Positions 4,046 to 46,900 of a stretch of DNA of 64,000 nucleotides are shown in pieces. Numbering within the stretch: position 1 is the stretch's first letter; every line of letters begins with the position of its first letter. Made by a program: the position numbers and the translations under genes. The stretch comes from an uncultured delta proteobacterium (GTDB taxonomy: Bacteria; Desulfobacterota; Deferrimicrobia; Deferrimicrobiales; Deferrimicrobiaceae). The notes beneath the pieces are model-generated. The model saw nothing but the letters and a program-made list of their open reading frames with translations. It did not search any database and was not told the DNA's origin. The stretch is from NCBI GenBank assembly GCA_963811025.1, contig CAWEPX010000033.1, positions 144,583-208,582 of the forward strand, given 5' to 3'.

Positions 4046-4116
4046 AGCGTGGGGGCTTTGCCCGATGGATGCGGAATACAAGGAAAAACGGATTTCCGAG
4101 ATGTGAGGAGGCCAAC

Positions 4117-4632
4117 ATGTTTAGCTGGCAGCGAGGCGTCATTATAGGGATTTCAGTGCTCTTTTTAAGCGCTGTCGCTTACGGGCAGGAAATCTCGAAG
4201 GAACAGATCAAGGGCCTGGATGAACAGGTCCAGGAGGTCAAGAGCGATGTCCTGAGCATCGCGGCGGAATTGAACCAGCTTGAAGAGAAGCTGCTGTATC
4301 CGTCCAACACGCAGGTCGCGGTATTCGTGTCGCTGGCCAACGGCGAGACCTTCCGTCTCGATTCGGTGGAGATCCAGCTGGACGGAGAGCCGGTCGCCTA
4401 CCACCTTTACACCTTCAAGGAGCTTGAAGCCCTGCGGAAGGGCGGGGTGCAGCACATTTACACCGGCAATGTCCGGTCCGGCGGGCATGACCTCCAGGTT
4501 CTGGTCCTCGGCAAAAACGCAGGGGGGACCGATTTCAAAAAATCGGGACGTTTCACGTTCGATAAGGACGTGGGCCCGAAGTTCGTGGAGATATCTCTGG
4601 CCGGCAAGGACATCACCATGAATGACAGGTAG
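4117..4632 (+). CDS. Hypothetical secreted protein (signal peptide, coiled-coil N-terminus)
   Basis: RBS 'gaggagg' precedes ATG 4117. The hydrophobic signal 'VIIGISVLFLSAVAYGQ' is present. No family recognised. Confidence 0.5.
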   Translation: MFSWQRGVIIGISVLFLSAVAYGQEISKEQIKGLDEQVQEVKSDVLSIAAELNQLEEKLLYPSNTQVAVFVSLANGETFRLDSVEIQLDGEPVAYHLYTFKELEALRKGGVQHIYTGNVRSGGHDLQVLVLGKNAGGTDFKKSGRFTFDKDVGPKFVEISLAGKDITMNDR

Positions 4633-4635
4633 ACC

Positions 4636-6528
4636 ATGAAGAGGCTGATAGTTTCATTGACCATTCTGATATTTTCAACGCCTTCGGCGTCGGCCGGACC
4701 GTCCGCTCCGAAGGAGCTGAGGGACCTCCACTTCGGAGAGGCCCTCTATTGCGCGTATCAGGGAGATTGGTTCGACGCCATCTCAAGGCTCGACACCGAA
4801 CTCATGCAGCACTATGGGGTGGACGAGCCAGAACGCGACATCCTTCATTATCATGTCGGCGAAGCGAAGTTCGACGTGGGCGATTTCGAGCTGGCATACC
4901 GGATGCACCGGCGGGCCGGGCGCGCCTATACGGCGGTCATCGAGGGCAACGTCGAGGAGCCGGTGCGCAACGAGGCCATTTTCCGCTTGGCGCGGCTCTA
5001 CTTTCAGAAGGATCAGCCGGTCAACGCCGAGGACGCAGTGGAGAGCATCAGGGGGGACGTCCCGCCGGAGATTCGCAACGACCTGGATTTCCTGCGCGCC
5101 CAGATCCACATGGCCAATGGCCGGTATCCCGATGCCGTGAGAATTCTGAGGGGCCTAAAGGATGCCAAGGGCCTCCAGGGCTTTGCCACATACAACCTCG
5201 GCATCGCCCTTATCAAGGACGGAAAGGAGCTCGAAGGCCGCCAGGTTCTCGACCACACGGGCCAGATAAGCGGCGTTGACGATGTCACCCTGGCGATCAA
5301 GGACAAGGCGAACCTCGTCCTCGGGTTCAAGCTGTTAAAGGAGAAGGATTTCGAGGGTGCCAAGCTGGTGCTTGACCGGGTGCGCCTAAACGGGCCGTTT
5401 TCCAACCGGGCGTTGCTTGCCTCGGGATGGGCGGACGCCTCCCAAGGACGATTCGAGAGGGCGTTGGTGCCCTGGAGCACTGTCGTGACGAGAGAGGTCA
5501 CGGACGCCTCGGTGCAGGAGGCCATGCTCGCCGTCCCTTATGCGTATGGCAAGCTGAACGTGAACAGCAAGGCAGCGGTGATGTACGACGGTGCGCTCGA
5601 GAAGTTCGATGCTGAATTCGACAACCTCGGGGCGTCCATCAAAAGCATCCGCGAAGGCAATTTTCTCCGGGCTCTGACGCGGGAGGAACTGAAACAGGAC
5701 GCTGACTGGGTCGTCAAGCTGCGCGAGCTCCCCCAGACTCCCGAGACATATTACCTGCTTGACCTGATGGCCTCCCATGATTTCCAGGAATCCCTGAAGA
5801 ACTATCTCGACCTGGAGCAGTTGCGCACGAAGCTTTACTCCTGGGAAAAAGATTTGGACGCTTTCGAGGATATCATTGCGCAACGCTGGGCATATTACGA
5901 GCCGCTTCTTCCAGTCATCGACCGGGAGTTCCGGCGGCTTGACTCACAAATGCGCCTGCGCCTGGAGCAGCGGGACCGCATCGAGCAGCGTCTTACGGCC
6001 ATGCTGGTGGTCCCGAGGCCCGATTATTTAGCGACCGCCGAGGAAAGGGTCATCGGTGAGCGGATCGCGCTCTTGGAGCGAAAGCTGACTACGGGTGGCA
6101 CAGCAGTACCCGACGAGGTCGACGCCAGAATCAACCGTTTGCGGGGAGTGCTGCACTGGAACGTCTATACGGAATACGACGGTCGCTTCACAGAGGCCTA
6201 TAAGGATCTACGCGACCTCAATCGAGAGGTGGACCTGTTGAAGAGGCAGTACTCCGCCTTTGTCCGCACCCGCCAAGCCGCCACCCAGAGCTACGAAGGA
6301 TACGACGACGTGATCCGTCGCCTGAGGTCGACGATAGGAAAGGCCCGGGAAAAGGTGGGCCAACTGATGGCACGACAGGGCCAAATGCTCGAGACCATGG
6401 CCGTCAACGAACTCAACGCCCGCCGTGATCGGCTTGCCAAGTTCCAAACCAAGGCAAGTTTTTCCATGGCGGACAGCTATGACCGCGCCACCAGGGCCCA
6501 GATCAAGGAAAAGGAAAAGGGTGAGTAA
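4636..6528 (+). CDS. TPR-repeat periplasmic protein
   Basis: Signal peptide 'MKRLIVSLTILIFSTPSASA'. TPR-like helical repeats throughout. The stop overlaps the next start (taaATG). Confidence 0.65.
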   Translation: MKRLIVSLTILIFSTPSASAGPSAPKELRDLHFGEALYCAYQGDWFDAISRLDTELMQHYGVDEPERDILHYHVGEAKFDVGDFELAYRMHRRAGRAYTAVIEGNVEEPVRNEAIFRLARLYFQKDQPVNAEDAVESIRGDVPPEIRNDLDFLRAQIHMANGRYPDAVRILRGLKDAKGLQGFATYNLGIALIKDGKELEGRQVLDHTGQISGVDDVTLAIKDKANLVLGFKLLKEKDFEGAKLVLDRVRLNGPFSNRALLASGWADASQGRFERALVPWSTVVTREVTDASVQEAMLAVPYAYGKLNVNSKAAVMYDGALEKFDAEFDNLGASIKSIREGNFLRALTREELKQDADWVVKLRELPQTPETYYLLDLMASHDFQESLKNYLDLEQLRTKLYSWEKDLDAFEDIIAQRWAYYEPLLPVIDREFRRLDSQMRLRLEQRDRIEQRLTAMLVVPRPDYLATAEERVIGERIALLERKLTTGGTAVPDEVDARINRLRGVLHWNVYTEYDGRFTEAYKDLRDLNREVDLLKRQYSAFVRTRQAATQSYEGYDDVIRRLRSTIGKAREKVGQLMARQGQMLETMAVNELNARRDRLAKFQTKASFSMADSYDRATRAQIKEKEKGE

Positions 6529-9500
6529 ATGAAGCGGATCCGACTTTTCCTTTGCGCGGCGCCATTGATGCTGGCCGCATGTGCCTCGGTAAGCAACAGG
6601 GATACCATTGCCACGTTGCGACATGAGCATATCGAGATCAAGGAGGAGAAGATCGAGGGCGGGCTTGAGAAAGCGATGATGAGTTACAAGCGTTTCCTGA
6701 AGGACAAGCCGGACTCCACCTTGACGCCAGAGGCCATTCGTCGTCTGGCCGACCTGAAGATCGAAAAAGAATACGGCACCTTCACGACGGACGCCGGGAC
6801 TACCGGGTCGGCCCGGGCGTTGCCCCCCCCTGAACACGTGACGCCTCCCGAGTCCTCTCCGGTCGCCGGAGCAGCGCCGGAGCAGGCAGTGGCGCATATT
6901 CCGGTCCACGACGAGTCTGAGGCGGACTTTGTAGATCGTGCAGCCCACAGCCTGGCGGCGGACAGCACGGCGACGGCCACTGACAGGTCCGTCGGAGGAA
7001 CCGGCGATCTCGAACGGACTGGCGCCCGCGAGGCCATTGCGCTTTACCAGAAGCTTCTCGATGATTACCCCCTTTATGAACGCAACGACCAGGTGCTGTA
7101 CCAGATGTCCCGAGCGTATGAGGAACTGGGGCAGACCGAGGAGGCCATGGCGGTCATGGACCGGATGGTCCGCGAGTATCCACAGTCTCGGTATTTCGAT
7201 GAGGTGCAATTCCGGCGCGCTGAATACTACTTCGTGCACAGGCGCTACTTGGATGCCGAGAATGCCTACGAGAGCATCGTGAATATGGGCGCCGATTCAC
7301 AGTTCTACGAGCTGGCCCTGTACAAGCTGGGATGGACGTTCTACAAGCAGGACCTCTATGAGGACGGCCTGCAATGGTTTATCGCCCTAATGGACCACAA
7401 GGTGTCGGTGGGGTACGACTTCGAACAGACCGAGGACGAGCAGGAACGAAAGCGGACAGACGACACCTTCCGGGTCATCAGCTTGAGTTTTTCCAACCTC
7501 GGCGGAGCCGATTCCGCGGTGGAATACTTCTCGAAACACGGCAAGCGCAGCTACGAGGACAGCATATACAGTAACCTCGGCGAATTCTACTTCGACAAGC
7601 GCCGTTACGCCGACGCCGCCGCGACCTACAAAGCCTTCGTGGATCGCAACCCGTACCACAAGGCGGCACCGAACTTCCAGATGCGGATTATCGAAATTCA
7701 CGCTGCCGGCGGATTTCCCACTCTCGTTCTTGACTCCAAAAAGACATTCGCCGCGGCCTACGGTTTGCAGGCTGATTACTGGAAGTATTTTGCTCCGGGG
7801 GAGAGGCCGGACGTCCTTGGTTATCTGAAAACCAACTTGACCGACCTGGCGAACCATTATCATGCCTGCTATCAGGACCCCCGGCTGGCCAAGGGAAAAA
7901 TCTGCAAACTTCGAAGAGGCGCTGCACTGGTACAGGGAGTTTCTGACCTCGTTCCCCGCGGACCCCGAATCGCCTGCTATCAACTACCAGTTGGCGGATC
8001 TACTGATGGAAAACCGGTCGTTCGGAGAAGCGGCCGTGGAATTCGAGAAGACCGCGTACAACTATCCGACCCATGCAAAATCCTCCCAGGCTGGCTTCGC
8101 GGCGGTCGCCGCGTACCGGGAGCAACTGGCCGCCGCCGCTCCGGAAGACCAGGACGCGGTCAAACGGGAGGTCGTTCGCAGTTCGCTTACGTTTGCCGAT
8201 ACCTTCCCGGAACACGAAAAGGCTGCGATCGTTCTCGGGGCGGCCGCGGATGACCTGTACGGGATGAAGGAATATGAACAGGCGCGCGCCGCCGCCAACA
8301 GGCTCATCGAGGCGTTCCCCAGCGCAGAAACTGACGTCGTCCGCGAGGCCTGGCTGGTCGTCGGCCATGCATCTTACGAACTCTCGCGCTACGGCGAGGC
8401 CGAGGGCGCCTATATGAATGTATTATCGTTGCTTCCAGCGGAGGACACATCGCGCGAAGCTCTGATGAACAATCTCGCGGCATCGATTTACAAGCAAGGG
8501 GAGCAGGCCAATGCCGCCCAGGATTATAGAGCCGCAGCGGACCACTTCCTGCGGGTGAGCCGCGTGGCGCCGACCTCGAAAATCAGGCCGACCGCCGAAT
8601 ATGACGCTGCCGCGGCCCTGATCCAGGTCAAGGACTGGGAGGCGGCAGCATCGGTGCTGGTTGGATTCCGCAATACCTTTCCCGAGCACCCGTTGCAGCC
8701 CGAAGTGACAAAGAAGATCGCCTATGTCTACAGGGAAAACAATCAACTTTCCCTCGCGGCCATCGAGTATGAACGTATCGAAAGGGAATCCCGGGACGAC
8801 GAGACCAGGCGGGATGCTCTCCTGGTTGCGGCGGAGTTGCATGAAAAGGCAAACAATAGCGCCCGCGCGCTTGAGGTGTACCAACGCTACGTGGGCTTTT
8901 TCCCGCAACCGGTGGAGCTCAACCTGGAGACGCGAAACAAAATTGCCGGGATCCTGAAGGCACAGAACGACCGCACATCCTATCTTGAGGAACTCGAAAA
9001 GATCGTAGCCATCGACGCCTCGGCGGGGAGCGAACGGACCCTGCGGACCCGCGAACTTGCCGCACAGTCCGCATTGGTGTTGGCCGAGCAGGCATATGAC
9101 GCGTTTATTGCCGTCGACCTGGTACAACCCTTTGAGGTCAATCTGCAGAAGAAGCGCGAGCTGATGAAGATTGCTACACAGAAATTCAGTCAGCTCGTGG
9201 ATTACGAGATTGGGGACATCACTGCCGCGGCGACGTTCTATCTGGCCGAGATCTACGCCAACTTCAGCAAGGCCCTGATGGCGTCGGAGCGTCCCACGGA
9301 CCTGAGCCCCTTGGAACGGGAACAGTACGAACTGGCCATCGAAGAGCAGGCCTATCCGTTCGAAGAAAAGGCCATCGAGGTCCATGAGAGCAATCTCAAG
9401 CTGATCTCCCGCGGGGTATACAATGCGTGGATCGAAAAGAGCCTTCAGAAACTGGCGAAGTCCGTGCCCGCGCGATATGACAGGCCGGAAGATGCCAGCG

Positions 9501-9967
9501 GCATCATCAGTTCGGCGGACACTTACGTTTTTGCAATCGACAGACCGATTCCAGCGTACTCCCACGTGGCGAAATCCGTGGGGTCCGTTAATGCGCCTCC
9601 CGCCCAGGCTCAAGAACCCGGATCAGTAACGGAGTCTGACATTGCAGCACCTGCCCAGGCCGGAGAACCCGTCGCTACGACAGAGCCGGAAACAGCGGCG
9701 CCGGCCCTGGTCGAAGAACCCGGATCCATAACGGAGTCTGGCACCGCACCGCCTGCCCAGGTCCAGGAACCAGGATCTGAGACGGAGTCCGACACCACGG
9801 CGACTCCCCAGGCTGAACAACCCCGACCTGTGATGGGGCCGGACACTGCGGCGCCCGCCAAGGCCGAAGAACCCGTATCCGTGATGGAGCCGGAGACTGC
9901 TGCACCTGCGCAAAGCGACCGCATGGGCCAGCCCCCGATAAGAACGGGCGATGCAACAAGGAGGTAA
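6529..9967 (+). CDS. Large TPR-repeat lipoprotein (~1140 aa, GltD/AgmU-like), interrupted by a frameshift near 7870-7890
   Basis: Lipobox 'LMLAACAS'. Two overlapping ORFs (6529-8253 and 7862-9967) read as one continuous TPR protein if one indel is repaired: '...LANHYHA' in one frame continues as 'EKSANFEEALHWYREFL' in the next. The C-terminus carries acidic Pro/Glu/Thr 17-aa repeats. Confidence 0.6.
9598..9930 (+). repeat. About 6.5 diverged 51-nt tandem repeats encoding a 17-aa 'APAQxxEPGSxTESDTA'-type unit
   Basis: Successive units are visible in the sequence, e.g. cctgcccaggccggagaacccgtcgctacgacagagccggaaacagcggcg / ccggccctggtcgaagaacccggatccataacggagtctggcaccgcaccg. Confidence 0.7.
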
Positions 9968-9970
9968 GCG

Positions 9971-10663
9971 GTGCACAGCATGCATATAAGAATGTTGCGA
10001 AGGATACAAACACGAACGTGCGCCGGATTCGCCGTTCTTGCAATGGCGCTGGCGGTTCTCGCCGGGTGCGCAACTGGTGGAAAGGTCAAGGCCCCGGATG
10101 CTCATGAACCCTCCGCGGTTAAGGGCCCCTCAGTGGCGAGACTCGCGGATGGCCGGGAAGGGTTCATCATCACGGAAGTCCCCACGATGGATGAGGCGGC
10201 GCGCAGGGACTTCGATCGCGCCGTTGCCATGCTGAAGGACCAGGATTATGAACGGGCCATCGACCTTCTTGAAAAGGTCATCGAGCAGTCGCCGGGCGTC
10301 ACGGCGCCATATATCGACATCGCGATTGCCTATCAGCGCATCGGCAAGCCGGAGCGGGCCGAGGAGCATCTTCGCACAGCGCTGACGCTATTTCCCGGGC
10401 ACCCGGTGGCATGTAATGAATACGGTCTCTTGTATCGCAAGACCGGACGGTTTACCGAGGCGCGGGAGATTTATGAGAAGGCAATCGAGCGCTTTCCGGA
10501 TTATTATCCGGCGCACAAAAATCTCGGGATTCTCTGCGACCTGTATCTGAATGATCCGGCGTGCGCCTTGGAGCATTACGAGATATACAGCATCGCCAAT
10601 CCGGATGATACGCAGGTCACATTGTGGGTCGCGGATTTGCGCGCCCGGCTTGGACGCGATTAA
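9971..10663 (+). CDS. TPR-repeat lipoprotein
   Basis: Lipobox 'VLAGCATGG'. TPR motifs (e.g. '[27 protein letters not shown]'). Confidence 0.65.
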
Positions 10664-10675
10664 GGAGGGACAGCG

Positions 10676-10962
10676 ATGCGTCGCATTTTGGTCCTGTGTG
10701 TGTGTTTGGTACTCTTCCCGGCTGTCCTGCCGCAGCCGGGGATGTGGATAGCGAAGAGCAATCGGAAGCCAAGGAGCTATCCGGCATGTCGATCGTCGGC
10801 AATGACGAAGCACCGAAATCCCTTTACATCGTTCCCTGGAAAAGCTCGGAAATCGGCGCGGAGACCAGCCTGGACACGATGTTGAATGAAGGCGATGTGC
10901 CGGTGGACCGGGACGTTTTCAAGCGGCAGCTTAGATTTTATCAAGTCAGCACGAAGAAATAA
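10676..10962 (+). CDS. Small secreted acidic protein, apparently frameshifted after its signal peptide
   Basis: The signal peptide 'MRRILVLCVCLVLFPAV' is in frame 2. The mature-looking part 'LPGCPAAAGDVDSEEQ...PKSLYIVPWKSSEIG...' is in frame 1. The switch falls at a 'gtgtgtgtgtttgg' run. Confidence 0.35.
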
Positions 10963-10996
10963 CTTTGTTGTCTCGTTTGGGGAGAGGAGGAAAGCG

Positions 10997-11647
10997 ATGG
11001 GATTCTATTCAATAGTGGCGTTTTTCCAGAAGGGTGGGGTGTTCATGTACCCGATCCTGCTCGTGTTTGCGGTTGGGATGGCCATCGCGTTTGAACGCTG
11101 GGTTCAGTTGAACCGCATCCGGGGCGTAAATCAAAAGATGTGGGACATGCTGCATCCGGTGCTGGTCAAGGGAGAGTTCGATAAAGCCCGGGAAATGGTC
11201 AGCAAGGACAAATCCAGCATGGCGCAGATGCTGGGGATGGGACTGGCGCGCCAGGGCGCGGTCCGGCGGCGCGAAGACATCGAAATCGCCATGGAAGAGA
11301 GCATGATGGAGATCATCCCCCAGCTGGAGAAGCGCACGCCCTACGTGGCGCTGCTCTCCAATATCGCCACCCTGCTGGGGTTGCTCGGCACCATCATGGG
11401 GCTGATCGAGGCCTTCACCGCCGTTGCCAATGCCAACCCCGCCGAAAAGGCCGACCTGCTCTCGGCCAGCATCTCGGTGGCCATGAACACCACCGCCTTC
11501 GGACTGATGTCCGCGATTCCGCTGCTGCTGTTCCATGCCAAGCTGACCTCGACCGCCGGCCAGATCGTGGACAGCCTGGAAATGGCATCGGTCAAGACGC
11601 TGAACACCATCTCCAATTTCGCCAAGCGTCAATTCGAGAGGAGCTGA
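10997..11647 (+). CDS. MotA/TolQ/ExbB proton-channel protein
   Basis: RBS 'ggagaggagg' then ATG. Three TM helices and the TolQ/ExbB signature '...LLGLLGTIMGLIEAF...AMNTTAFGLMSAIPLLLFH'. Confidence 0.85.
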   Translation: MGFYSIVAFFQKGGVFMYPILLVFAVGMAIAFERWVQLNRIRGVNQKMWDMLHPVLVKGEFDKAREMVSKDKSSMAQMLGMGLARQGAVRRREDIEIAMEESMMEIIPQLEKRTPYVALLSNIATLLGLLGTIMGLIEAFTAVANANPAEKADLLSASISVAMNTTAFGLMSAIPLLLFHAKLTSTAGQIVDSLEMASVKTLNTISNFAKRQFERS

Positions 11648-11649
11648 CC

Positions 11650-12140
11650 ATGACCAGACGATATCATCACAAAAGGGGAAGGGAAGAAACATCCGGCCTG
11701 GACGTCACGACCTTCATGAACCTGATGGTGGTGCTCGTCCCGTTTCTGCTCATCAGTGCCGTCTTTTCGCGCGTGACGATCATGGAGCTGAGCGTTCCGA
11801 CCAGCGCCGGCGGAGCGGCTCGAAAGAGCCGAATTTCGCCATCGAAGTGATTGTCCGTAAAGCCGGACTGGAGATCGCCAACGGATCGTCCGTGGAGGCC
11901 GCAATTCCGAAAAAAGACGGTCACTACGACATGCAGATGCTGCACGAAATGCTCATGCGCCTGAAGGCACGTTACCCGAAGAAGGATGACGCGACAGTCC
12001 TGATGGAACCGGATATCGAGTACGACTATCTGGTCCAGGTCATGGATGCGGTACGCGGCGCCGAAGTGCGGGCGGAAGGGAGCGAAGAGGTCAAGAAAAT
12101 AGTTCTCTTTCCATACATATCGATAGGAGACGCGCCATGA
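11650..12140 (+). CDS. ExbD/TolR family protein (frameshift near 11815-11830)
   Basis: The N-terminal TM segment 'TTFMNLMVVLVPFLLISAVF' (ORF 11650-11850) and the C-terminal periplasmic ExbD domain 'IEVIVRKAGLEIANG...' (ORF 11847-12140) lie in different frames. Confidence 0.7.
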
Positions 12141-12632
12141 GAGAAACCAGACGCATGAAACGGATGGGGCGCAGCAGGAAGAAGATTACAGGTCTGAACC
12201 TGACGCCGCTGATGGATGTTTTCACCATTCTGGTGTTTTTCCTGCTTTTTCACTCGTCCGGCGGCGATATTGTGGAAGCGCCCAAGCAGATCAAGCTGCC
12301 CGATTCCGTCGTCGAGACCAAGCCAAGGGAAACGGTTGTGATCATGGTCAGCCCCGAGGTAGTGCTGGTCCAGGGCGAAGCCGTGATCGGCACCCCCGAA
12401 CTCCTTGATGACCGGATCGGGTCGGTTGCTGCGAATAACAGAGCGGTTGACGCAGCTTGAGCGCAATATCATCGGGATCAGCACCAAGACGGTTGCCGAA
12501 AACAAAGAAGTCACGATCCTTGCGGATAAAACGATTCCGTTCAAGGTACTTAAAAAAATAATGTCAACCTGTACGGACTCTGGATACGGAAGGATTTCCC
12601 TGGCCGTCATTCAGAAGGCCGTCCAGGGCTAG
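12137..12632 (+). CDS. Second ExbD/TolR family protein (frameshift near 12400-12420)
   Basis: N-terminus 'LNLTPLMDVFTILVFFLLF' and C-terminus '...KEVTILADKTIPFKVLKKIMSTCTDSGYGRISLAV' (ExbD C-terminal pattern) lie in different frames. Confidence 0.7.
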
Positions 12633-12642
12633 CGAGGATGCC

Positions 12643-14121
12643 GTGAAAACATCCATGTTAGCGCAGGAATTGGCGCCTCTGGAGGCGCTTATCGGGCAGG
12701 CGCGGCAAAGGAAAGATGCCCTTGAGGGTGAGTTGCGCGCCGTCGAGGCAGAACTCGAAACATTTTCCGCCGAGAGACAGCGGTTCGATGCGTTGCGGGA
12801 CATTTGCAATGCGTTCGACAGGCTGGGGGAACTGAAAGCGGATGCACTCTTTTGGGAAGGAGTCGCGGAGGGCCAGGACACCGCCGGACACGTGGAACGG
12901 GCGAGGAACCGGGTTGCCCGCTTCGAGGGGGAGATCGGCGGGATCCTGGAAAATCAGGCATCTCTACAGGGGCAGATCAAGCAATGTCTCGACGAATTGG
13001 ACATCCTCTATGAAGAAGTACGTGATGCGTACGACCGTGAAGAGCGGCGGAAGGAAGAGTTCGTCATAGAGCGGGAGATATCCCCTGTTCCCTATCGCGC
13101 AATGGTCATGCCATGGACCAAGGAGGCCGAGAGCGAAAGACGCTTCAATCGCTCCGTCCTCGTGGCGCTTTCCATAAGCTTTCTTTTCGGCGCTCTCATT
13201 TCCCTGATAATAGTGCCGATACCGGACCGCTCGGTCGCCGTTGCGGAAATTCCAAAACGATTGGTCCAGCTGGTCAAGAAGGAGATACCAAAGCCCGCGC
13301 CGGCGCCGAAGCGCGAGCCGAAAAAGGTCGAGGAGGAGACAAAACAGGCGAAGAAAGAGCCCAAACCCAAGGCCGATGAGCCTAAGCCGGAAGCACCGCC
13401 GAAAGAGGCGAAGCCGGCGGAGAAACCTACGAAAACGGCCGCCAATGACGGCGGGGCGGCGGCATCGAGGAAAAAGGCCGAAGGTGTCGGCGTTCTGAAG
13501 TTCAAGAACGCCTTCAAGGACTTAATGAACGAAGTTCCCGTTGCGAAGCTTGGCACCGAGGCCCGTCTGAGCAAGGAGAGCCCGCGGACGAAAGGACAGG
13601 CCGTGGCCCAGCGCTCGCTTGTGGCCATGCAGGGGGTGGGCGGCTCCAGCGGAGGTATCGGCGGCGCAGGCGTCAGCCGCAACGTTGGATACGGCAATGC
13701 CGGCCGGCTCGGAGGCGGCGGCGGTATCGGCAGCGGCGGTGGCAGCGGAGTGGGCTTTGTTCGGGTAGAAAGCTCCATAGCAAATTTGGAAGAATCGTCG
13801 AGGCCGACGAGCGATGGAATGGCCGCTGGACGAACGGATGAAGAAATCCAGATTGTATTCGATCGGTACAAGGCGGCCCTTTACCGGATCTACAACCAGG
13901 AACTGCGCAAGGACTCGACGCTACAAGGGAATATATTGATGCGAATCAGCATCGAACCGGACGGCGCGGTGTCCTTGTGCAAGGTGGAATCAACCGACTT
14001 GGCTTCAACCAAGCTGGTAGACAAGGTTGTGGAGCGCATCAGAAGGTTCAACTTTGGCCCGAAGGAAGGTGTTCAGAAGGTGACCATCCTGTACCCGATC
14101 GACTTTTTACCCGCTGGTTAG
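12643..14121 (+). CDS. TonB-family protein with ~170-aa cytoplasmic coiled-coil N-domain, one TM, Lys/Pro/Glu-rich and Gly-rich linkers, and C-terminal TonB domain (GltG/AgmX-like architecture)
   Basis: Coiled-coil N-terminus. TM 'VLVALSISFLFGALISLIIV'. Linker 'KPAPAPKREPKKVEEETKQAKKEPKPKADEPKPEAPPKEAKPAEKP'. Gly run. The C-terminal segment 'YNQELRKDSTLQGNILMRISIEPDGAV...KVTILYPIDF' resembles a TonB C-terminal domain. Confidence 0.7.
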   Translation: MKTSMLAQELAPLEALIGQARQRKDALEGELRAVEAELETFSAERQRFDALRDICNAFDRLGELKADALFWEGVAEGQDTAGHVERARNRVARFEGEIGGILENQASLQGQIKQCLDELDILYEEVRDAYDREERRKEEFVIEREISPVPYRAMVMPWTKEAESERRFNRSVLVALSISFLFGALISLIIVPIPDRSVAVAEIPKRLVQLVKKEIPKPAPAPKREPKKVEEETKQAKKEPKPKADEPKPEAPPKEAKPAEKPTKTAANDGGAAASRKKAEGVGVLKFKNAFKDLMNEVPVAKLGTEARLSKESPRTKGQAVAQRSLVAMQGVGGSSGGIGGAGVSRNVGYGNAGRLGGGGGIGSGGGSGVGFVRVESSIANLEESSRPTSDGMAAGRTDEEIQIVFDRYKAALYRIYNQELRKDSTLQGNILMRISIEPDGAVSLCKVESTDLASTKLVDKVVERIRRFNFGPKEGVQKVTILYPIDFLPAG

Positions 14122-14190
14122 AAAAGCGGAGGGGACGGGGTATACGTTTAAGGACGGAGACCACCGAGTGTCCGATTATAGGAGGAAACA

Positions 14191-14895
14191 ATGGGAATGA
14201 TTGCGTTTTTCCAAAAGGGCGGGTTGTTCATGTACCCCATTCTGCTGGTGTTTGTCGCCGGTATGGCCATTGTGGTCGAACGCTGGGTTCAGTTGAACCG
14301 CATCCGGGGCGTAAATCGAAAAATGTGGGATATGCTTCATCCCATACTGGCCAGGGGTGAATTCGACAAAGCGCATTCGATAATCGACAAGGACAAGTCC
14401 ACCATCTCTCAAATGCTGGGGATGGGACTGGCGCGCATGGGTGCGGTCCGGCGGCGGGAGGACATCGAAATCGCCATGGAAGAGAGCATGATGGAGATCA
14501 TCCCCCAGCTGGAGAAGCGCACGCCCTACGTGGCCCTGCTCGCCAATATCGCCACCCTGCTGGGGTTGCTCGGCACCATCATGGGGCTGATCGAGGCCTT
14601 CACCGCCGTTGCCAATGCGAATCCCGCCGAGAAGGCTGACCTGCTCTCGGCCAGCATCTCGGTGGCCATGAACACCACCGCCTTTGGGCTGATGTCGGCG
14701 ATTCCGCTTCTCCTGTTCCATGCCAAGCTGACATCGACCGCGGGCCAGATCGTGGACAGCCTGGAGATGGCGTCGGTAAAGTCGCTGAACAGTATTTCTG
14801 ATTTCAATAAGCGCCACTTCGAGGCGAAATCGGAGCCCCCGGCCGGAAAGCAGCAAGTTGCCACCCAGGAACCCCAGCTAGGGACAGCATCGTAA
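14191..14895 (+). CDS. MotA/TolQ/ExbB proton-channel protein, paralog of 10997-11647
   Basis: About 85% aa identity to the first copy. The central 269 nt are ~96% identical at the DNA level. Confidence 0.85.
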   Translation: MGMIAFFQKGGLFMYPILLVFVAGMAIVVERWVQLNRIRGVNRKMWDMLHPILARGEFDKAHSIIDKDKSTISQMLGMGLARMGAVRRREDIEIAMEESMMEIIPQLEKRTPYVALLANIATLLGLLGTIMGLIEAFTAVANANPAEKADLLSASISVAMNTTAFGLMSAIPLLLFHAKLTSTAGQIVDSLEMASVKSLNSISDFNKRHFEAKSEPPAGKQQVATQEPQLGTAS

Positions 14896-14953
14896 TGTCC
14901 GTTCAGGGCACGCGGAAACGATGTGTCAGCATCAAAAGAAAGGAGAAAAAGGG

Positions 14954-15529
14954 ATGAGAAACAAGGGATGGTTGGCTATCGCTCTGGGAGTGATGTTGCC
15001 GGTTATGTTATTCACGGTTTCATGTGCCAAAAAGACGGTGGTCCAATCCCAGCCGGAATCGATGGCTGGATCGGATGTCCAGAAGGCGGCAGTCCAGAAG
15101 GCGCCGGACAGACCCGCCGAGGAAGCCAGGCCGGACGGACGGCTTGAAGAAGACCGATTTCGGGCGGAAACCGCTGCCCGTGAAGCCGCCTTGACGGCGT
15201 TCGTCGGCGAGAATATCCATTTCGAATTCGACAGTTTTCTGTTGTCGGACCAAGCCCGGCAGATTTTGGTCAGCAAGGCCGAGTATCTGCGCACGAATCC
15301 GGATATAATGGTCACGGTGGAAGGGCATTGCGATGATCGCGGCACGAGTGAGTACAATATCGCCCTGGGCGAACGACGTGCCGAATCGGTCAGGATGTTC
15401 CTCGGTGATCTGGGCATCGGAACCAATCGGATGAATACCGTGAGTTACGGAGAAGAACGGCCCATTGCCACGGGACACGATGAGGCTTCCTGGGCCGAGA
15501 ACCGCAGAGCCCAGTTCGTGATCAATTGA
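14954..15529 (+). CDS. pal: Peptidoglycan-associated lipoprotein (OmpA-family C-terminal domain)
   Basis: Lipobox 'LFTVSCAKK'. OmpA/Pal motif 'TVEGHCDDRGTSEYNIALGERRAESV...NRRAQFVIN'. Confidence 0.8.
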   Translation: MRNKGWLAIALGVMLPVMLFTVSCAKKTVVQSQPESMAGSDVQKAAVQKAPDRPAEEARPDGRLEEDRFRAETAAREAALTAFVGENIHFEFDSFLLSDQARQILVSKAEYLRTNPDIMVTVEGHCDDRGTSEYNIALGERRAESVRMFLGDLGIGTNRMNTVSYGEERPIATGHDEASWAENRRAQFVIN

Positions 15530-15796
15530 TTTCCGACTAATCGCTTGTCCTTCAAGAACTGATCATGTGGGCACATCACGAGGTGTTTGGCTTGGAAATC
15601 CGCCGGGCAATCCATCGGCAGGCAACCGGCAATGCATCATTGGAATGTCGGGGTAACCCCCGAACTTCCCGGAATAAGACGACTTCGGAAGAACCCGGAT
15701 AGGATAAGGGAAAAACAGGGCATTTCAGCAAAATTTGGCCAATATACGGGAAACATAAGCGAGAACGTGCGCAATTTCATTGGAGGAGGTCGGTCG

Positions 15797-16201
15797 ATGA
15801 ATGCGATCCGGAAGGCAGGCTGGTTTTTCTCCTTGGTGTTGATGATGGCATGCGTAATGGGAGTACTCGGGTCGATCCGGGGAGAGGCAGTGGCGGGCGT
15901 CATCGCATCCCACGGCACGGACAGCGTGGTTGCTCGGAACGTGGACATCACCAAGGTCCAGTCATTCCTGGAGCAGAAGATCGTCCTGCAGAAGTTCTCC
16001 GACTACGGGGTCTCCGCGGACGAGGCGATGGAAAAGGTCCGCGCGATGAGCGACCGGGAGGTGCATCGGCTCGCTGCCCTGACCGACCGGGCGGCCGAAG
16101 GGACGGACTCCGGGCTGGGCCTGCTGATCGGGCTGGCGGTCCTCGTCCTCCTGATCGTCGTGATCCTCAAGCTGATGAATAAGGAAGTCGTCGTTCGCTG
16201 A
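15797..16201 (+). CDS. Hypothetical exported protein with C-terminal TM anchor
   Basis: RBS 'ggaggaggtcggtcgATG'. N-terminal signal/TM and C-terminal 'LGLLIGLAVLVLLIVVILKL'. Confidence 0.45.
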   Translation: MNAIRKAGWFFSLVLMMACVMGVLGSIRGEAVAGVIASHGTDSVVARNVDITKVQSFLEQKIVLQKFSDYGVSADEAMEKVRAMSDREVHRLAALTDRAAEGTDSGLGLLIGLAVLVLLIVVILKLMNKEVVVR

Positions 16202-16223
16202 CAATGCAGTCGAGCATGTTATC

Positions 16224-16257
16224 GGGCGCCGCCCAGGAATATTGCGGCGCCCTTTTC
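16224..16257 (+). terminator. Rho-independent terminator
   Basis: gggcgccgc-(11-nt loop)-gcggcgccc followed by ttttc. It sits 23 nt after the stop of the 15797-16201 gene. Confidence 0.6.
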
Positions 16258-16926
16258 ATGTAACGACATTTTGTGAGCGCACTCCCGACCTTCCTCTCTG
16301 AAACTCTCATACGGTTCCGAGGTGTTTCACACATCAACACCCTCTCGGCAAGCCCCCCTTTTCATCCAGAAAATGCCAGTTGTTTGCACTGATTTGCAGT
16401 CCGTTCGGACTCACTAAGCGGTACTTAAAGAACTTATGATCATCCGGCGCTATTGGAGTGAATGCGGACAGGGCACTACTTGGGCATACAGGTCTCTGTC
16501 GGGATGAGGATCGTATGCATTGGAGAAGTATGCTTGGGTGTCTAGGATCCCGATGGGATTCACTTCACGGAGATGGTATCTGTAAGCCCCCTAGAATAGC
16601 ATTGATATTGGTTACATTCCTGTCTCGATTCCGCATTCCGCGTCATATTTGTTGTTATGGCATGATTCATGAATTACAAGTTTATTGGGTATTCGGGGCA
16701 CTAAAAAGAGCGTACTTCCGGACCTTTTGGGGGCGCAGGAAAGGAAAGGTTTCGAAATCTTCCGAGCGATACCAAATGTGTAAATTCCCGAAAGAAAAAT
16801 CTAAGATGCGGGTGGAGCAATCACGGGTGATTTTCAGGATAGGCAGTGAAAAATGCAACCTCCTAACGGGGCAACAATCACAAACATTGGAAGAAGCCTG
16901 AGAGGATGACAGGGGGAGGCAACAAC

Positions 16927-17694
16927 ATGAAAAAGTTGCTATTGGGGACAATTCTTTTAGCGTTGGCAATTGTCGTTCCGATTCCAACAATCGCAGGCGT
17001 GAATATAAGTATTGGAATTTCTCTGCCGCCACCCATTGTATTTGAGGCACCTCCGGATGTGATCGTGATCCCTGATACGAACAATGTGTACGTTGTTCCT
17101 AATATAAATGTAGACTTCTTTTTCTGGAATGGTTGGTGGTGGCGTCCATGGGAAGGTCGTTGGTATCGCTCCCATTATTATAACCAGGGTTGGGTGTATT
17201 ATGAAAATGTTCCAAGTTTTTATTTTGATGTAGACCCTGGTTGGAGAAGATACTACAGAAGCCATAATTGGTACGGACATAGGTGGTACTATGAACGGAT
17301 CCCTAGTCGACAGGTTGAACAGAACTGGAAGCGCTGGGAAAATAATCGATATTGGGAAAAACAAAGAACATGGGGTGTGAAGAACTATAAACCTCGGACG
17401 CAATCACGGAGAGAAGAATTACGACATCAAAGACAAGTGCAATATCAACGGAGGCCCGAGGTTAAGCGACATCAGCAACAGATGCATCAGCAGCAAAGGC
17501 AAGGACAAGTTGGGCAACCTCAGAGACAACATCAGCAACCACAAAAAGAAAGACAGCGGAAGCAACAAGCTCAAAGTCAGCAGCAACCCAAGCAGCAGCA
17601 AGGTCAACCTCGGGGCAAGCAACAACAGGGGAAATCACGACTACAACACCCTCAAGAAAAACCTGATAGAGAGGACGAAGGACAACGACGGTAG
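16927..17694 (+). CDS. Secreted Trp/Tyr/Arg-rich protein with a long Gln/Arg/Lys-rich low-complexity tail; sits in an AT-rich islet
   Basis: Signal peptide 'MKKLLLGTILLALAIVVPIPTIAG'. Aromatic segment 'FFFWNGWWWRPWEGRWYRSHYYNQGWVYYENV...RYYRSHNWYGHRWYYER'. The C-terminal ~100 aa are almost entirely Q/R/K/P. The local GC content and codon usage depart from neighbouring genes. Confidence 0.5.
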   Translation: MKKLLLGTILLALAIVVPIPTIAGVNISIGISLPPPIVFEAPPDVIVIPDTNNVYVVPNINVDFFFWNGWWWRPWEGRWYRSHYYNQGWVYYENVPSFYFDVDPGWRRYYRSHNWYGHRWYYERIPSRQVEQNWKRWENNRYWEKQRTWGVKNYKPRTQSRREELRHQRQVQYQRRPEVKRHQQQMHQQQRQGQVGQPQRQHQQPQKERQRKQQAQSQQQPKQQQGQPRGKQQQGKSRLQHPQEKPDREDEGQRR

Positions 17695-17753
17695 GAAAAC
17701 CAGGGGAAGTCCATTTCAAGGGATATTGAAATATCTCATGCTGTGAGCATCTT

Positions 17754-18503
17754 ATGGAAGAAGACTACAATCCTGACATCCTAAAGACTATCGAGCTTTT
17801 ATCAACCCTCTCCGACGAGGAGGTCGAACACGTCCGCGAGCGGGCCGTGATCAAAAAGTTCTTGAAGAACGAGACCATTCTTCATGAGGAGGACACGAAC
17901 GAATTTCTCTACATGATTCTCTCCGGCAGCGTGAAGGTGGTCCAGACGACGCAGGACGGAAAGGAGATGGTGCTTGCCATGCACCGCTCGCGGGACTTCT
18001 TCGGCGAGATGTCGCTGCTTGACGGCAAGACCGTGCCTGCGACCGTGGTGGCGATGGAGGACTCCCTGGTGGCCATCATGTCCAAGAAGGACTTTTACTC
18101 GGTGCTCTTCTCCCAGAGGGCGCTTCTCGAGGCCGTCCTCAGGATCCTATGCAGTCGGCTCCGCGAGTCCTGGGAAAAGGTCCGTCTGCTAACATTCAAG
18201 GACACGGCTCTCCGTATCAAAGCCCTCTTCCTTATTCTGTCCAGCGAGTATGGAGAGGAAGGTGACGAAGGATTAACGCTCAGAATCACGCTCACTCACC
18301 AGAGCATCGCGGACATGACAGGCCTTGCGAGGGAGACCGTCACGCGGATGCTCGACAAGTGGCAGAGAGAAGGGGAGATAACCATCCTCAAGGACAAGTT
18401 CATTCTCATGAACCACGATTTTCTTAAGAAGGACTTGGATAGTTTCGCCGATTTCAGCGACAAAAAGGCCGGATCTTTTGAGTCTCACCTTATTTCTTCG
18501 TAG
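17754..18503 (+). CDS. Crp/Fnr-family transcriptional regulator
   Basis: cNMP-binding fold ('FFGEMSLLDGKTVPATVVA') plus C-terminal HTH ('HQSIADMTGLARETVTRML'). Confidence 0.8.
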   Translation: MEEDYNPDILKTIELLSTLSDEEVEHVRERAVIKKFLKNETILHEEDTNEFLYMILSGSVKVVQTTQDGKEMVLAMHRSRDFFGEMSLLDGKTVPATVVAMEDSLVAIMSKKDFYSVLFSQRALLEAVLRILCSRLRESWEKVRLLTFKDTALRIKALFLILSSEYGEEGDEGLTLRITLTHQSIADMTGLARETVTRMLDKWQREGEITILKDKFILMNHDFLKKDLDSFADFSDKKAGSFESHLISS

Positions 18504-22966: not shown

Positions 22967-23686
22967 TCATTTATCACCGACCAGTCGCCGGGTTTTTTTC
23001 AGGTACCGCACAACCGAATAAAAAATCGTGGCTGCAACAAATGATAAGGACGAGAACCAGATTACGGGCCCGCTTAATTCGTGCCCGTAACGTATGTACT
23101 GATTTTTGACGATCAACAGGATCATGACGGTTATCCAGGCATATGTCGTCCCATACTCTTTTACAAGGAGACGCCTCCAGTTGAACGTCATGCTTTTCAG
23201 TGTCGTCCCGATCCCGGACAGACCAGGGATAAGGCTGTTGACCTTTCCGCAGTATTCCCTGTATTCCTCTCCGAACTTGCCGGAGAGGTAATTCTCCTCC
23301 GCCTTTATGATTGCCATATATGCCAGAACGAAGAAGGGGATTCCGATGAAATAGAACACGGCTGAATCTGCGACTACGCCGAGCCCTGAAACGATCAGGA
23401 TATTCCCCAGGTACAACGGGTTTCTGCAATGGGCGAATATCCCGTTCGTGACCAGGGTATCGGCATATACTTTTTTGTCCCTGCCCCCGCGAACGATGTA
23501 GGCAAGCCCTATGGTCAAAGCTCGTACGAGCTGTCCGCTCAGGGCGATAACGAACCCTGCGAGATAAATCCATGTTTCCGTTTGCCTGTTGCCCAGGAAT
23601 GGTTTTGTGCCCAATATCATAAGGAAAAAGAGAAGAGGGAAAACAAGATTTCTGTACTTGAAAAGAAAATTTCCGAGGCGGATCAT
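22967..23686 (-). CDS. Isoprenylcysteine carboxyl methyltransferase (ICMT)-family membrane methyltransferase
   Basis: Motif 'FAHCRNPLYLGNILIVSGLG' and 'AEENYLSGKFGEEYREY'. Multi-TM protein. GC content is somewhat lower than surroundings. Confidence 0.7.
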   Translation of the reverse strand: MIRLGNFLFKYRNLVFPLLFFLMILGTKPFLGNRQTETWIYLAGFVIALSGQLVRALTIGLAYIVRGGRDKKVYADTLVTNGIFAHCRNPLYLGNILIVSGLGVVADSAVFYFIGIPFFVLAYMAIIKAEENYLSGKFGEEYREYCGKVNSLIPGLSGIGTTLKSMTFNWRRLLVKEYGTTYAWITVMILLIVKNQYIRYGHELSGPVIWFSSLSFVAATIFYSVVRYLKKTRRLVGDK

Positions 23687-23848
23687 CTTGCTACTTTACG
23701 GCTACCATTTTTGGACATTGGCGGATCCGATCGGAAGTTTTTTTCGCTCGCGCAACGCCGCATCCGGCAGCTTTTCTCCATCAGTATACGCGCGGTGGGA
23801 TGGTGCGTGCAATCCGAAATCCACGCGCACGCCGAATGTCGGCCGGCC

Positions 23849-24550
23849 CTATCGATATTGAATCTTTTTGATCCCTTCGAACTGCTCGATTGCCCCGGTC
23901 AACTCTCTGCCGATGTTACCCTGCCGCTGCTTCAGCACCATCTTGAGGAAGATTTCATTTTTTTCCAGGTCCACCTGGGAACTGACCTCCGAAATCCTCA
24001 GCCCCCGCTCATCGACCAATTGCCGGAGATCGTCGTACAGGGAATCGCGCCGCCTGGCGGTAACGGCCAAAAAGAGGTAACGGTCTTTTTTTATGGTCAA
24101 ATCAAACTGTTTCAGAAAAAGCAGACCCACAAGGACGGTAATGGTCGAGAGGGCCCCAAGAGAGAAAAATCCCATGCCGAACGCCATTCCGAGCCCGGCA
24201 ACCACCCAGAGGGTTGCGGCTGTCGTCAGTCCCCTCACGGTGGCCCCCTCCTTGAGGATCACTCCCGCGCCAAGAAAACCGATACCGGTCACAATCTGCG
24301 CCGCCGTACGGGAAGGATCAAGGCGCAAGAGGGACTGCGCATTGTATGCACCGTATTTGAGGAAAAACGTCTCGGAGATGATCATCACCGTACAAGCGCC
24401 GACCGAAACGAGCAGGTTCGTGCGCAACCCCGCAGGACGCCCCCGTTTCTCCCGTTCCAAGCCGACGAGCCCACCCGCCAGGGCAGAAAGAAACAGCTTC
24501 AGCAGGATCGCCAGTTCATAACTTCCGAACAGCCTGGGGTCGAAAAACAT
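23849..24550 (-). CDS. mgtC: MgtC/SapB-family membrane protein
   Basis: 'LKLFLSALAGGLVGLEREKRGRPAGLRTNLLVSVGA...' is the MgtC signature, with a C-terminal ACT-like domain. Confidence 0.8.
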   Translation of the reverse strand: MFFDPRLFGSYELAILLKLFLSALAGGLVGLEREKRGRPAGLRTNLLVSVGACTVMIISETFFLKYGAYNAQSLLRLDPSRTAAQIVTGIGFLGAGVILKEGATVRGLTTAATLWVVAGLGMAFGMGFFSLGALSTITVLVGLLFLKQFDLTIKKDRYLFLAVTARRRDSLYDDLRQLVDERGLRISEVSSQVDLEKNEIFLKMVLKQRQGNIGRELTGAIEQFEGIKKIQYR

Positions 24551-39957: not shown

Positions 39958-40130
39958 GGGGCGGCTCCATTTTTTTTCTACCTCTCTTCCCGGGAGAGCG
40001 TCAAGCGGACGTTTCCGGCGAGGGTGACCCGGATCATTTTTTTGCCCTGACGACGAGAAAGCACCCCACGCCGTGCCCTTCCCGGACCGGACCCGTCTTT
40101 TCCCTCCCGCCCGGATCCCCCCCGGCGGTC

Positions 40131-40397
40131 CTACTCCGCTCCTCCCTTGCCCGGCCAGGGACAAGCGTTCGATACCGTGATCACCATGACCGCGTGACCC
40201 TTGGCCGCGGCCCCGCGGAAAGCGTCGAAAAGGGCCGGGAAGACCTTCTCGTCATCGCCCCACACCAGGGTGCTCATCGCCCCGGTCTGTCTTTCGATCC
40301 CGTGTTGCGCAAACGTCTGCGTCACGGCGTCGATGGAGGGGGAGAGATCATCCTGCCCCAACGGGTAGAGGCTTACCTGCGCGGAAATTCCATACAT
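40131..40397 (-). CDS. MTH1187/YkoF-family small protein (thiamine/HMP-binding fold, DUF77)
   Basis: 'MYGISAQVSLYPLGQDDLSPSIDAVTQTFAQHGIERQTGAMSTLVWGDDEKVFPALFDAF' is the characteristic pattern. Confidence 0.65.
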   Translation of the reverse strand: MYGISAQVSLYPLGQDDLSPSIDAVTQTFAQHGIERQTGAMSTLVWGDDEKVFPALFDAFRGAAAKGHAVMVITVSNACPWPGKGGAE

Positions 40398-41213: not shown

Positions 41214-41432
41214 GTTTGCTCCTTTCCGGCCCGGACAGGGTAACCCTGCTGCTATTTTTACACGTAACGTGCCGGAACCGAAGTTCCGATACACAGGACG
41301 TGAGGAGGAAGATGACCATGACGATCGATGTGGACCCGGACGCCGGCGAGATCTTCGTCAAGGATGATGCCGGCAACGAGCGCCCGGTGAAGTCCATCGT
41401 GGCATCCCGGCGCCTGGTAATATTGTGCCCGC

Positions 41433-41957: not shown

Positions 41958-42150
41958 GACCCCTGCCGCTCCCCCCGAACGTGTTAGAATCCCACCTATT
42001 ATACGAGGGATAACGGCTCATACGAGGGACAACAGCGATTCCCCCGGGGAGTCTCCCGCCACGATGACGTTTCCCCGCTTTTCGAATTTCCTTTGCCGTT
42101 TCTTCGTCCTGTCGCGGGAGCCGAAACGATCCGTCAAGGAGACGCCGTTC

Positions 42151-46654: not shown

Positions 46655-46900
46655 GAATACCTCCCGAAACCCGCCCGGGACGATGCGGGGATGATAATCG
46701 AACGATACGCCTGACGAACGGTGAAGGCAAGGATGCTGTTTTCCCGGGGTCACGTTGTCCGTGCCGGCGGCGGGGATCTCCTCCCCCACGGAGATGCGAT
46801 AGTAGCGATTCCGGAATATTCCTGTGGTAATTTTAAAACGGGCCGGGCAAAATTCCATACCTGTCGTGATAACAAACAATGCCGGAGCACGGGAAGAGAG

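Follow-up and report, generated by a model that had tools for sequence, protein, structure and literature searches.

A large unnamed family of exported Trp-rich proteins and its probably laterally acquired member in a Candidatus Deferrimicrobiaceae genome

The DNA analyzed here (the window) is a stretch of 64,000 nucleotides on contig CAWEPX010000033.1, from an uncultured bacterium assigned to Candidatus Deferrimicrobiaceae (phylum Deferrimicrobiota, previously called MBNT15; PMC9386147). The window contains no universal marker gene, and the assignment follows cluster members at least 90% identical to its TrkH and PA2779-family proteins. One of its genes (16927–17694) encodes an exported protein rich in Trp, Tyr and Arg that is a typical member of a very large, unnamed and uncharacterized family of exported proteins. 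The gene is genuine and evolves under purifying selection. Horizontal acquisition of the window copy is well supported by allele comparisons; very probably the transfer was recent and the donor an unrelated bacterium of lower GC content. The reading favored for the whole is that of a laterally acquired, Sec-exported envelope protein whose core would bind a ligand and whose cationic tail would assist it, the two acting as an envelope-stabilizing or stress factor; the chances for and against this reading are evenly balanced.

A preliminary description of this DNA, made from the letters alone, had reported an open reading frame (ORF) with a signal peptide, an aromatic block and a tail of Q, R, K and P. 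All are present as described, and the sequences it quoted are correct. It had also called the protein bizarre, as one would an orphan, a view that must be given up because the protein belongs to a very large conserved family in which the Q-rich cationic tail is the rule.

Family and predicted structure of the protein

Residues 1–168 of the protein match 1579 clusters at 90% identity (E ≤ 1e-3), and HMMER, run exhaustively over 1.84 billion cluster representatives, returned 970 clusters at 50% identity (E ≤ 1e-3). The best 120 of the 1579 matches are 70–91% identical to the query; all are labeled "hypothetical" and none has a Pfam domain. A core-only profile aimed at annotated distant relatives matched 1783 proteins, of which the best 120 listed are likewise all "hypothetical" and without a Pfam domain. 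The window protein matches its closest family member with E = 1e-103 and carries every conserved family motif, including the invariant W79, W89 and P96. Among species-representative genomes, the family occurs in Thermodesulfovibrionales and other Nitrospirota, Geobacteraceae, Syntrophales, Syntrophorhabdales, Desulfobulbales and NC10, and it is also found in Deferrimicrobiota; the phyla named are Nitrospirota, Thermodesulfobacteriota, NC10 and Deferrimicrobiota. Cultured carriers in the Geobacteraceae are Pelotalea chapellei DSM 13688 and Oryzomonas japonica. Several genomes carry two or more copies.

The preliminary description had recognized no family, and this stands for the curated libraries. 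Pfam gave no match at E ≤ 1 for the window protein and none at E ≤ 0.1 in 56 diverse members, and searches of NCBIfam, PHROGs and PADLOC gave no match. When the protein, the 56 members and long relatives were searched against curated libraries, the sole match was a Big_5 Ig-like domain fused to one lipoprotein member. A sequence search of the PDB returned only poly-Q artifacts with the full profile and nothing below E = 0.1 with the core-only profile, and Foldseek found no match to the model at E ≤ 0.001 in the PDB (best E = 1.2) or BFVD (best E = 0.73). A literature search on the family, on PA2779/DUF6627 and on stress-gene clusters returned nothing specific. The core fold is predicted with confidence and is without a recognizable relative in the libraries searched.

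The N-terminus has the layout of a Sec-type signal peptide (MKKLLLGTILLALAIVVPIPTIA, followed by GV). Read by eye, its n-, h- and c-regions are KK, LLLGTILLALAIVV and TIA before G, which gives the window protein the basic n-region, hydrophobic h-region and small-x-small motif of a signal peptidase I substrate; in the alignment the leader is of the Sec type and not of the double-glycine type. About 5% of members have a lipobox instead of the signal peptide, and a few have two tandem cores. In the alignment of 56 diverse members, the core motif is LPPP..F.APP..V.IP.T.VY.VPD.D.D.FF..GWWWRPW.GRWYRS..YD.GW.YY..VP.FY...P.WR..Y....W.G..W.Y.RIP......NW..W...R.W. Across 84 loci, 32 of the 120 core positions are near-invariant (at least 98% conserved), 13 of them Trp, and 30 columns are invariant in alignment A2. 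Trp, Tyr and Phe make up 24% of the core, which has essentially no Cys.

AlphaFold2, run with the family alignment, gave a predicted local distance difference test score (pLDDT) above 90 for residues 31–190 and about 50 for residues 191–255. In the model, a small beta-sheet (strands 44–47, 65–67, 70–75, 78–82 and 90–92) packs on helices, and this confident model argues that the aromatic block is a folded domain and not low-complexity sequence. A compact domain of ~130–160 residues is therefore predicted, built on an invariant scaffold of ~13 Trp together with Tyr, Arg and Pro and without Cys. Two further helices are modeled at 159–174 and 177–192, with block pLDDT values of 87–97 (about 87 or higher to ~residue 190). 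The preliminary description had given the tail ~100 residues. The compositionally biased region does span ~residues 150–255, but the truly disordered part is only ~65 residues long, because residues 151–190 are conserved within the subfamily and 159–192 are modeled as helical. Residues 151–255 (105 residues) have an isoelectric point of 11.65 and a net charge of +17, and the DNA that encodes the tail contains no tandem repeats. The tail cannot be aligned across the 56 members. A cationic, Q-rich tail is nevertheless the family norm: the median length is 89 residues, at least 40 residues are present in 90% of members, the net charge is positive in 97% (median +10), and 143 of 207 tails have Q as their most frequent residue.

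Gene composition and lateral acquisition

The start codon is the ATG at 16927. An in-frame ATG also occurs upstream at 16906, and the later start is preferred because of the spacing from the Shine–Dalgarno sequence GGGGGAGG and because all homologs begin with MKK. The sharp drop in GC content noted earlier is confirmed, with values of 0.42–0.49 over ~16350–17700 as against 0.56–0.63 on both flanks. The gene has GC contents of 0.58, 0.38 and 0.39–0.41 at first, second and third codon positions (GC1, GC2 and GC3), and its GC3 is the lowest among ~50 ORFs of the window (mean 0.68, standard deviation 0.10); its direct neighbors have GC3 values of 0.64–0.86. Since the dip is confined almost wholly to third positions and GC1 and GC2 are ordinary, amino-acid composition was ruled out as the cause of the AT-richness.

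The atypical composition, the lack of annotation in any curated library and the absence of the exact product from the gene index could suggest an ORF that arose by chance, or a pseudogene in decay, within AT-rich junk DNA. This reading is so improbable as to be negligible and is already contradicted by observation. There are thousands of homologs with a highly conserved core, the Shine–Dalgarno sequence is strong, the structure model is confident, and the gene is intact in all sister strains. Moreover, five of its seven single-nucleotide polymorphisms (SNPs) among these strains fall at third codon positions, and the ratio of nonsynonymous to synonymous divergence (dN/dS) of the N-domain is 0.05 against the sister strain L084 (L-numbers denote comparison loci).

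The evidence for lateral acquisition comes from near-identical alleles in unrelated, mostly lower-GC genomes, which argue that the gene was acquired as a bare ORF. Relative to the window gene, synonymous divergence (dS) is 0.16 for L083, 0.30 for L004, 0.33 for L014, 0.36 for L006 and about 0.6 (0.58–0.60) for L010, whereas it is saturated (1.7–2.4) for the family members at L003, L007 and L039; expressed as the proportion of synonymous differences (pS), the distance to alleles in unrelated genomes is 0.15–0.36. The pair formed with L010 provides a control. The DUF6627 gene that adjoins the family gene in both genomes has a dS of 3.3 and 27% amino-acid identity, whereas the family gene has a dS of 0.58 and is 76% identical. 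L083 is 91.4% identical to the window in nucleotide sequence over 16831–17702 only, that is, the ORF and 96 bp upstream, in an unrelated gene context. Between genomes, homology begins 16–25 nt 5' of the ATG and stops within or at the end of the ORF, so that the Shine–Dalgarno sequence lies within the shared stretch. Cross-host allele pairs have pS values of 0.06–0.2; for instance, L004 and L014 differ by a pS of 0.06 despite flank GC contents of 0.43 and 0.56.

Base composition separates the copies in GC-rich hosts in the same way. Copies with host-like GC3 (0.58–0.76) have their nearest relatives at a pS of 0.41–0.62 and no close relative elsewhere. Four copies have low GC3 (0.41 in the window, 0.40 in L014, 0.44 in L028 and 0.47 in L002), and their nearest relatives lie at a pS of 0.06–0.24, mostly in low-GC Thermodesulfovibrionales. 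On the family-wide regression, the window copy has a residual of −2.9 standard deviations. The preliminary description had proposed foreign codon usage and horizontal acquisition, which the GC3, dS and mosaic-allele evidence upholds, and had named syntenic homologs of normal GC content in relatives as the finding that would speak against its account. Homologs are indeed widespread and many have host-like GC content, but they are not syntenic and the window copy is compositionally foreign.

Comparison of alleles further indicates that segments have been exchanged by recombination since the acquisition. At L090, which belongs to a sister strain in the host population, the neighbors are nearly the same as in the window (Crp identical, DUF6627 97% and TPR 96% identical), and the family gene differs by 16 nonsynonymous and 4 synonymous codons. 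Seven of the replaced residues, at positions 61–114, agree with the L083 allele, which makes the L090 allele a mosaic. Identity between L090 and the window is low in two patches (83% at 16450–16549 and 90% at 17150–17249) and 98–100% in the rest, a pattern that fits short recombination tracts. Strain divergence at this locus also falls steadily, from ~95% identity at 14100–14900 to 99.9% in the Crp gene.

Several observations weigh against a simple transfer, and some of them are the basis of a rival account, in which the gene would be old and native, selection would preserve its AT-rich codons (for instance because they weaken mRNA structure or slow the translation of an export substrate), and low dS would reflect synonymous constraint. 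No mobile vehicle was matched in phage, plasmid or IMG/VR viral-contig collections, no repeats flank or bound the AT-rich stretch, and the only tRNA gene of the window lies 36 kb from the gene, which leaves it without a mobility signature. The window copy and L002 come from related GC-rich hosts and have in common the DUF6627 adjacency, the terminator and a 51-bp element described below; dS between them is similar for the family gene (0.49) and DUF6627 (0.67), and their GC3 is 0.39–0.44. Descent in this lineage could therefore have been partly vertical, the gene retaining its low GC3. In addition, over 81 loci the GC3 of the gene is systematically below that of its flanks (0.49 vs 0.58). The AT-richness is not intrinsic to the gene, however, because copies in other GC-rich hosts reach the host-like GC3 values given above, with saturated pS. 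The L010 control, the near-identity of L083 in a wholly different context, the closeness of L004 and L014 and the L090 mosaic also stand against a native gene, and that account is unlikely. In view of what the window and L002 share, the acquisition may be older than the split of their lineages, or one allele may have been substituted for another at the same site. In its movement as little more than an ORF, this small AT-rich gene for an exported protein resembles integron cassettes and phage morons. It differs from them in that no attC-like or bounding repeats and no integrase lie nearby, it is absent from the phage, plasmid and viral collections, and a spacer of 725 bp stands in front of it.

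Genomic surroundings and candidate regulatory elements

The features of the locus are collected in Table 1. The preliminary description had put the non-coding DNA upstream of the gene at ~640 bp; the spacer is in fact 725 bp long. Of its suggestion that the spacer could host promoter or small RNA (sRNA) elements, only the promoter half stands, in the form of one conserved promoter- or operator-like element. The spacer matches nothing in Rfam at E ≤ 1, and its RNA form is predicted to be less stable than shuffled sequence (z-score +1.49); an sRNA or riboswitch was rejected for these reasons. A relic gene was rejected as well, since tblastx matches were to non-coding DNA only and the SNPs among strains (16.6 per kb) have no codon periodicity.

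Table 1. Features in and around the Trp-rich gene
Feature	Window positions	Strand	Basis
OmpA/Pal-like gene	14921..15529	+	Pfam OmpA; GC3 0.64
DUF6627/PA2779-family membrane protein gene	15797..16201	+	Pfam PF20332, NCBIfam NF033919
Non-coding spacer, 725 bp, GC 0.48	16202..16926		No called gene in four assemblies
Intrinsic terminator of DUF6627 gene, left edge of AT-rich stretch	16224..16257	+	Hairpin 16224–16252, then UUUU
Conserved 51-bp element, candidate promoter/operator	16733..16783	+	90% identical to L002 6836–6886
Shine–Dalgarno sequence	16912..16919	+	Sequence reading; 7 nt 5' of ATG
Gene for exported Trp/Tyr/Arg-rich protein, 255 residues	16927..17694	+	ORF; large unnamed family
Sec-type signal peptide, residues 1–23, predicted cleavage between TIA and GV	16927..16995	+	n/h/c layout by eye; kept in 56-member alignment
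Conserved aromatic core domain, residues 31–150	17017..17376	+	Conservation over 84 loci; pLDDT 90–98
Basic Q/R-rich extension, residues 151–190, predicted helical from residue 159	17377..17496	+	AlphaFold; kept among close homologs/subfamily
Predicted disordered cationic Q/R/K/P tail, residues 191–255	17497..17691	+	pLDDT about 50
Crp/Fnr-family regulator gene, 60 bp downstream	17754..18503	+	Pfam cNMP_binding, HTH_Crp_2

The terminator reported earlier at the left edge of the AT-rich stretch is sound: its hairpin has a 9-bp GC stem (free energy −22.6 kcal/mol, z-score −3.66) followed by UUUU, and the same terminator follows the DUF6627 gene in L002. L002 has just one piece of the spacer, the 51-bp element, which sits there upstream of a short family paralog and is otherwise restricted to the window strains. 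Inside it, at 16744–16763, lies a 20-bp near-palindrome with the halves GAAAGGTTTC and GAAATCTTCC, which occurs nowhere else in the window (chance expectation 0.01). It is plausible that this element is a promoter or operator. The palindrome differs in sequence from FNR and CRP boxes; within 16202–16926, no FNR-type box (TTGAT-N4-ATCAA) was found, and CRP-type matches (TGTGA-N6-TCACA) with two mismatches occur at chance frequency. A sigma-70 scan gave no upstream promoter on the + strand, and a sigma-54 −24/−12 motif picked out by eye at ~16843–16858 (GGCAGTGAAAAATGCA) was dropped because its GG–GC spacing is 11 nt and not 10.

Downstream, the 60-bp gap to the Crp/Fnr gene contains no terminator-like hairpin (z-score −0.8), so cotranscription of the two genes is possible. 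Adjacency of the family gene and a Crp/Fnr gene occurs in this lineage only. A perfect palindrome, GATATTGAAATATC, at 17722–17735, about 20–30 bp before the Crp/Fnr start, could be an operator for autoregulation or else a weak hairpin (z-score −0.8 as RNA). Relatives of the regulator outside the host population (L091–L103) are at most 66% identical and lie on contigs of 33–46% GC without a family gene; the regulator may also be of foreign origin.

On the other side, the DUF6627 gene has a host-like GC3 of 0.84. DUF6627 genes recur near the family gene within this subclade: one adjoins it in L002 and L010 as well, and one lies 1.6 kb from it in L024. In L002 (6920–8789), the order is a divergent short paralog (164 residues), DUF6627 and a full-length family gene, so that DUF6627 is flanked by family members on both sides; this layout suggests that DUF6627/PA2779-family membrane proteins and the Trp-rich family are functionally linked. 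An 876-bp segment (14902–15777) that carries the OmpA/Pal-like gene is absent from sister strains L084–L087, in which ExbB is followed directly by DUF6627, and it constitutes a strain-specific indel of an envelope gene beside the family gene. In L057 (3436–4173), an OmpA-type lipoprotein near the family gene has its own aromatic tail (…DHPYPYPYYPWGYYDPWWGYPYWWGGLGFSYYY) and is thus a further envelope protein rich in Trp and Tyr in these neighborhoods. Positions 1–14900 of the window encode TPR proteins, including YbgF-like and BamD-like ones, ExbB, ExbD, a second ExbD, a 492-residue protein that matches TonB_C weakly and another ExbB, with DUF6627 last in the row; the cluster resembles a Tol/Ton-type system for envelope energy transduction.

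Farther away, a second GC dip (0.50) occurs at 23001–24000, ~6 kb downstream of the Trp-rich gene. The only tRNA gene of the window (53987–54060) is followed by ~2 kb of lower GC content (0.54–0.56 at 54000–56000 vs ~0.65 around), a stretch that may be an integration hotspot or island. The window also encodes several sigma-54-dependent activators and a multi-PAS hybrid histidine kinase (38422–40164, 57503–60073 and 46721–49564) and an ankyrin-repeat protein (40468–42021).

Possible function in the cell envelope

The signal peptide, the lipoprotein variants, the Ig-like fusion and the recurrent neighbors together place the family, as far as comparison of loci goes, in the cell envelope. Over the 84 loci, the genes that recur, always on the same strand, encode BON/OsmY-like proteins (within 1.5 kb in 14 loci), OmpA/Pal-type proteins (9 loci, the window included), a coiled-coil protein (6 loci), three kinds of small membrane protein, one of them lmo0937-like (4–5 loci each), DUF6627/PA2779 (4 loci) and Flp/TadE (4 loci). 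This company points to a periplasmic, envelope-associated protein that would bind polyanions or act under stress, and it favors an envelope role over an antimicrobial one. The preliminary description had likened the protein to factors that interact with nucleic acids, polysaccharides or membranes, such as chaperone-like or antimicrobial-like ones, and these functions are at this stage suggestions. The product would be exported via Sec and its signal peptide cleaved. The Trp/Tyr/Arg domain would then bind an anionic component of the envelope, such as peptidoglycan, lipopolysaccharide or phospholipid head groups, and the polycationic, hydrophilic tail, predicted to be fast-evolving, disordered, strongly cationic and Gln-rich, would add multivalent electrostatic contacts and hydration. 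Together, domain and tail could stabilize the envelope or protect it under stress, working alongside the BON/OsmY-like, OmpA/Pal-like and small membrane proteins encoded on the same strand. In this lineage, expression would probably come from a promoter or operator supplied by the host, in the form of the 51-bp palindrome element ~165 bp upstream, and the transcript may be read through into the Crp/Fnr gene.

Some known systems resemble parts of this picture. WXXGXW/YXWGXW repeat proteins (PF12779) are small, exported and basic, with aromatic Gly-x-Trp beta-hairpin motifs behind a stretch rich in Pro. The window protein is also exported and basic, with a Pro-rich segment before the putative hairpin motif D-FFFWNGWWWRPWEGRWYRS; however, neither it nor the 56 members matched Pfam at the thresholds given above, and its core is a single ~130-residue domain with predicted helices and not an array of short repeats. 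Choline-binding repeats and GW modules are aromatic beta-hairpins whose clustered aromatics bind ligand. The G-W...G-x-W-Y hairpin pattern of the family is reminiscent of them and may serve as a lead, but no match in sequence or fold was found, the hosts are diderm anaerobes without teichoic acids, and the family scaffold has conserved helices. TonB, TolA, FtsN and DamX likewise combine a folded binding domain with an extended low-complexity periplasmic segment, and the window gene stands at the end of a cluster of ExbB, ExbD, TonB-like and TPR genes. In contrast to these proteins, most family members have no membrane anchor, the order is reversed (domain first, tail last), no TonB_C, SPOR or TolA domain is present, and a terminator lies between the gene and the Exb cluster. 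BON proteins such as OsmY and DolP (PF04972) are, like the family, exported hydrophilic envelope proteins; single- and multi-BON genes adjoin family genes at 14 of the 84 loci, and DolP binds phospholipid and supports outer-membrane integrity (PMC7806268). The window protein lacks a BON domain, contains far more Trp and has a long cationic tail; the relation is one of guilt by association only.

Some evidence weighs against the envelope reading. No neighbor is universal; BON genes occur at only ~15% of loci, and the loci are not phylogenetically independent. In addition, the ratio of nonsynonymous to synonymous differences per site (pN/pS) of the core (0.24–0.54) and the 16:4 ratio between the window and L090 alleles are high for a purely structural housekeeping role and could point to a variable interaction partner. 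The same ratios, the second of them between alleles of one population, would suit a secreted competition factor, a cationic Trp/Arg-rich protein that acts like a bacteriocin or on membranes, is driven to diversify by an arms race and is spread by lateral transfer, and so would the cationic, Trp/Arg-rich and exported nature of the protein, the several copies per genome and the frequent transfer. Nevertheless, no immunity gene, ABC exporter, double-glycine leader or lysis gene recurs at the 84 loci, the folded core of ~130 residues with 32 near-invariant positions is unlike short membrane-active peptides, PADLOC and PHROGs gave no match, and the recurrent neighbors are envelope and stress proteins; a competition factor is thus improbable. 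Less improbable, although still unlikely, is an extracellular matrix or surface-adhesion protein whose tail would bind extracellular DNA, acidic polysaccharide or sediment mineral surfaces. The tail is strongly positive throughout the family, one member is fused to the Big_5 surface domain and some are lipoproteins, Flp/TadE pilus genes adjoin in four loci, and all hosts are anaerobes of sediment or soil. Here the difficulty is that no secretion system beyond Sec is linked to the gene and that the commonest neighbors (BON, OmpA/Pal and small inner-membrane proteins) belong to the periplasm and envelope. Very improbable, at the far end, is the reading of the invariant ladder of ~13 Trp plus Tyr as a new fold that forms an aromatic array. 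The protein would then be an exported redox-hopping protein or one that contacts mineral or electrode surfaces, passed across phyla of metal-reducing and syntrophic anaerobes (Geobacteraceae, Syntrophales, Thermodesulfovibrionales and Deferrimicrobiota), with the cationic tail docking to anionic surfaces.

A family of this size and conservation, without representation in Pfam, NCBIfam or the PDB, is a candidate for a new domain definition. Its hosts are all anaerobes of environmental importance: iron reducers, syntrophs and Nitrospirota that cycle sulfate or sulfur. Genomes often have several copies, and the passage of the family between phyla as a bare ORF implies a portable benefit. Nothing yet shows an unusual mechanism for the Trp-rich family, and the question can be tested because cultured carriers exist (P. 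chapellei and O. japonica). If protection of the envelope is the wrong reading, the invariant Trp scaffold would still mark some other activity. If it is right, the family would be a new component of the poorly known stress biology of uncultured lineages.

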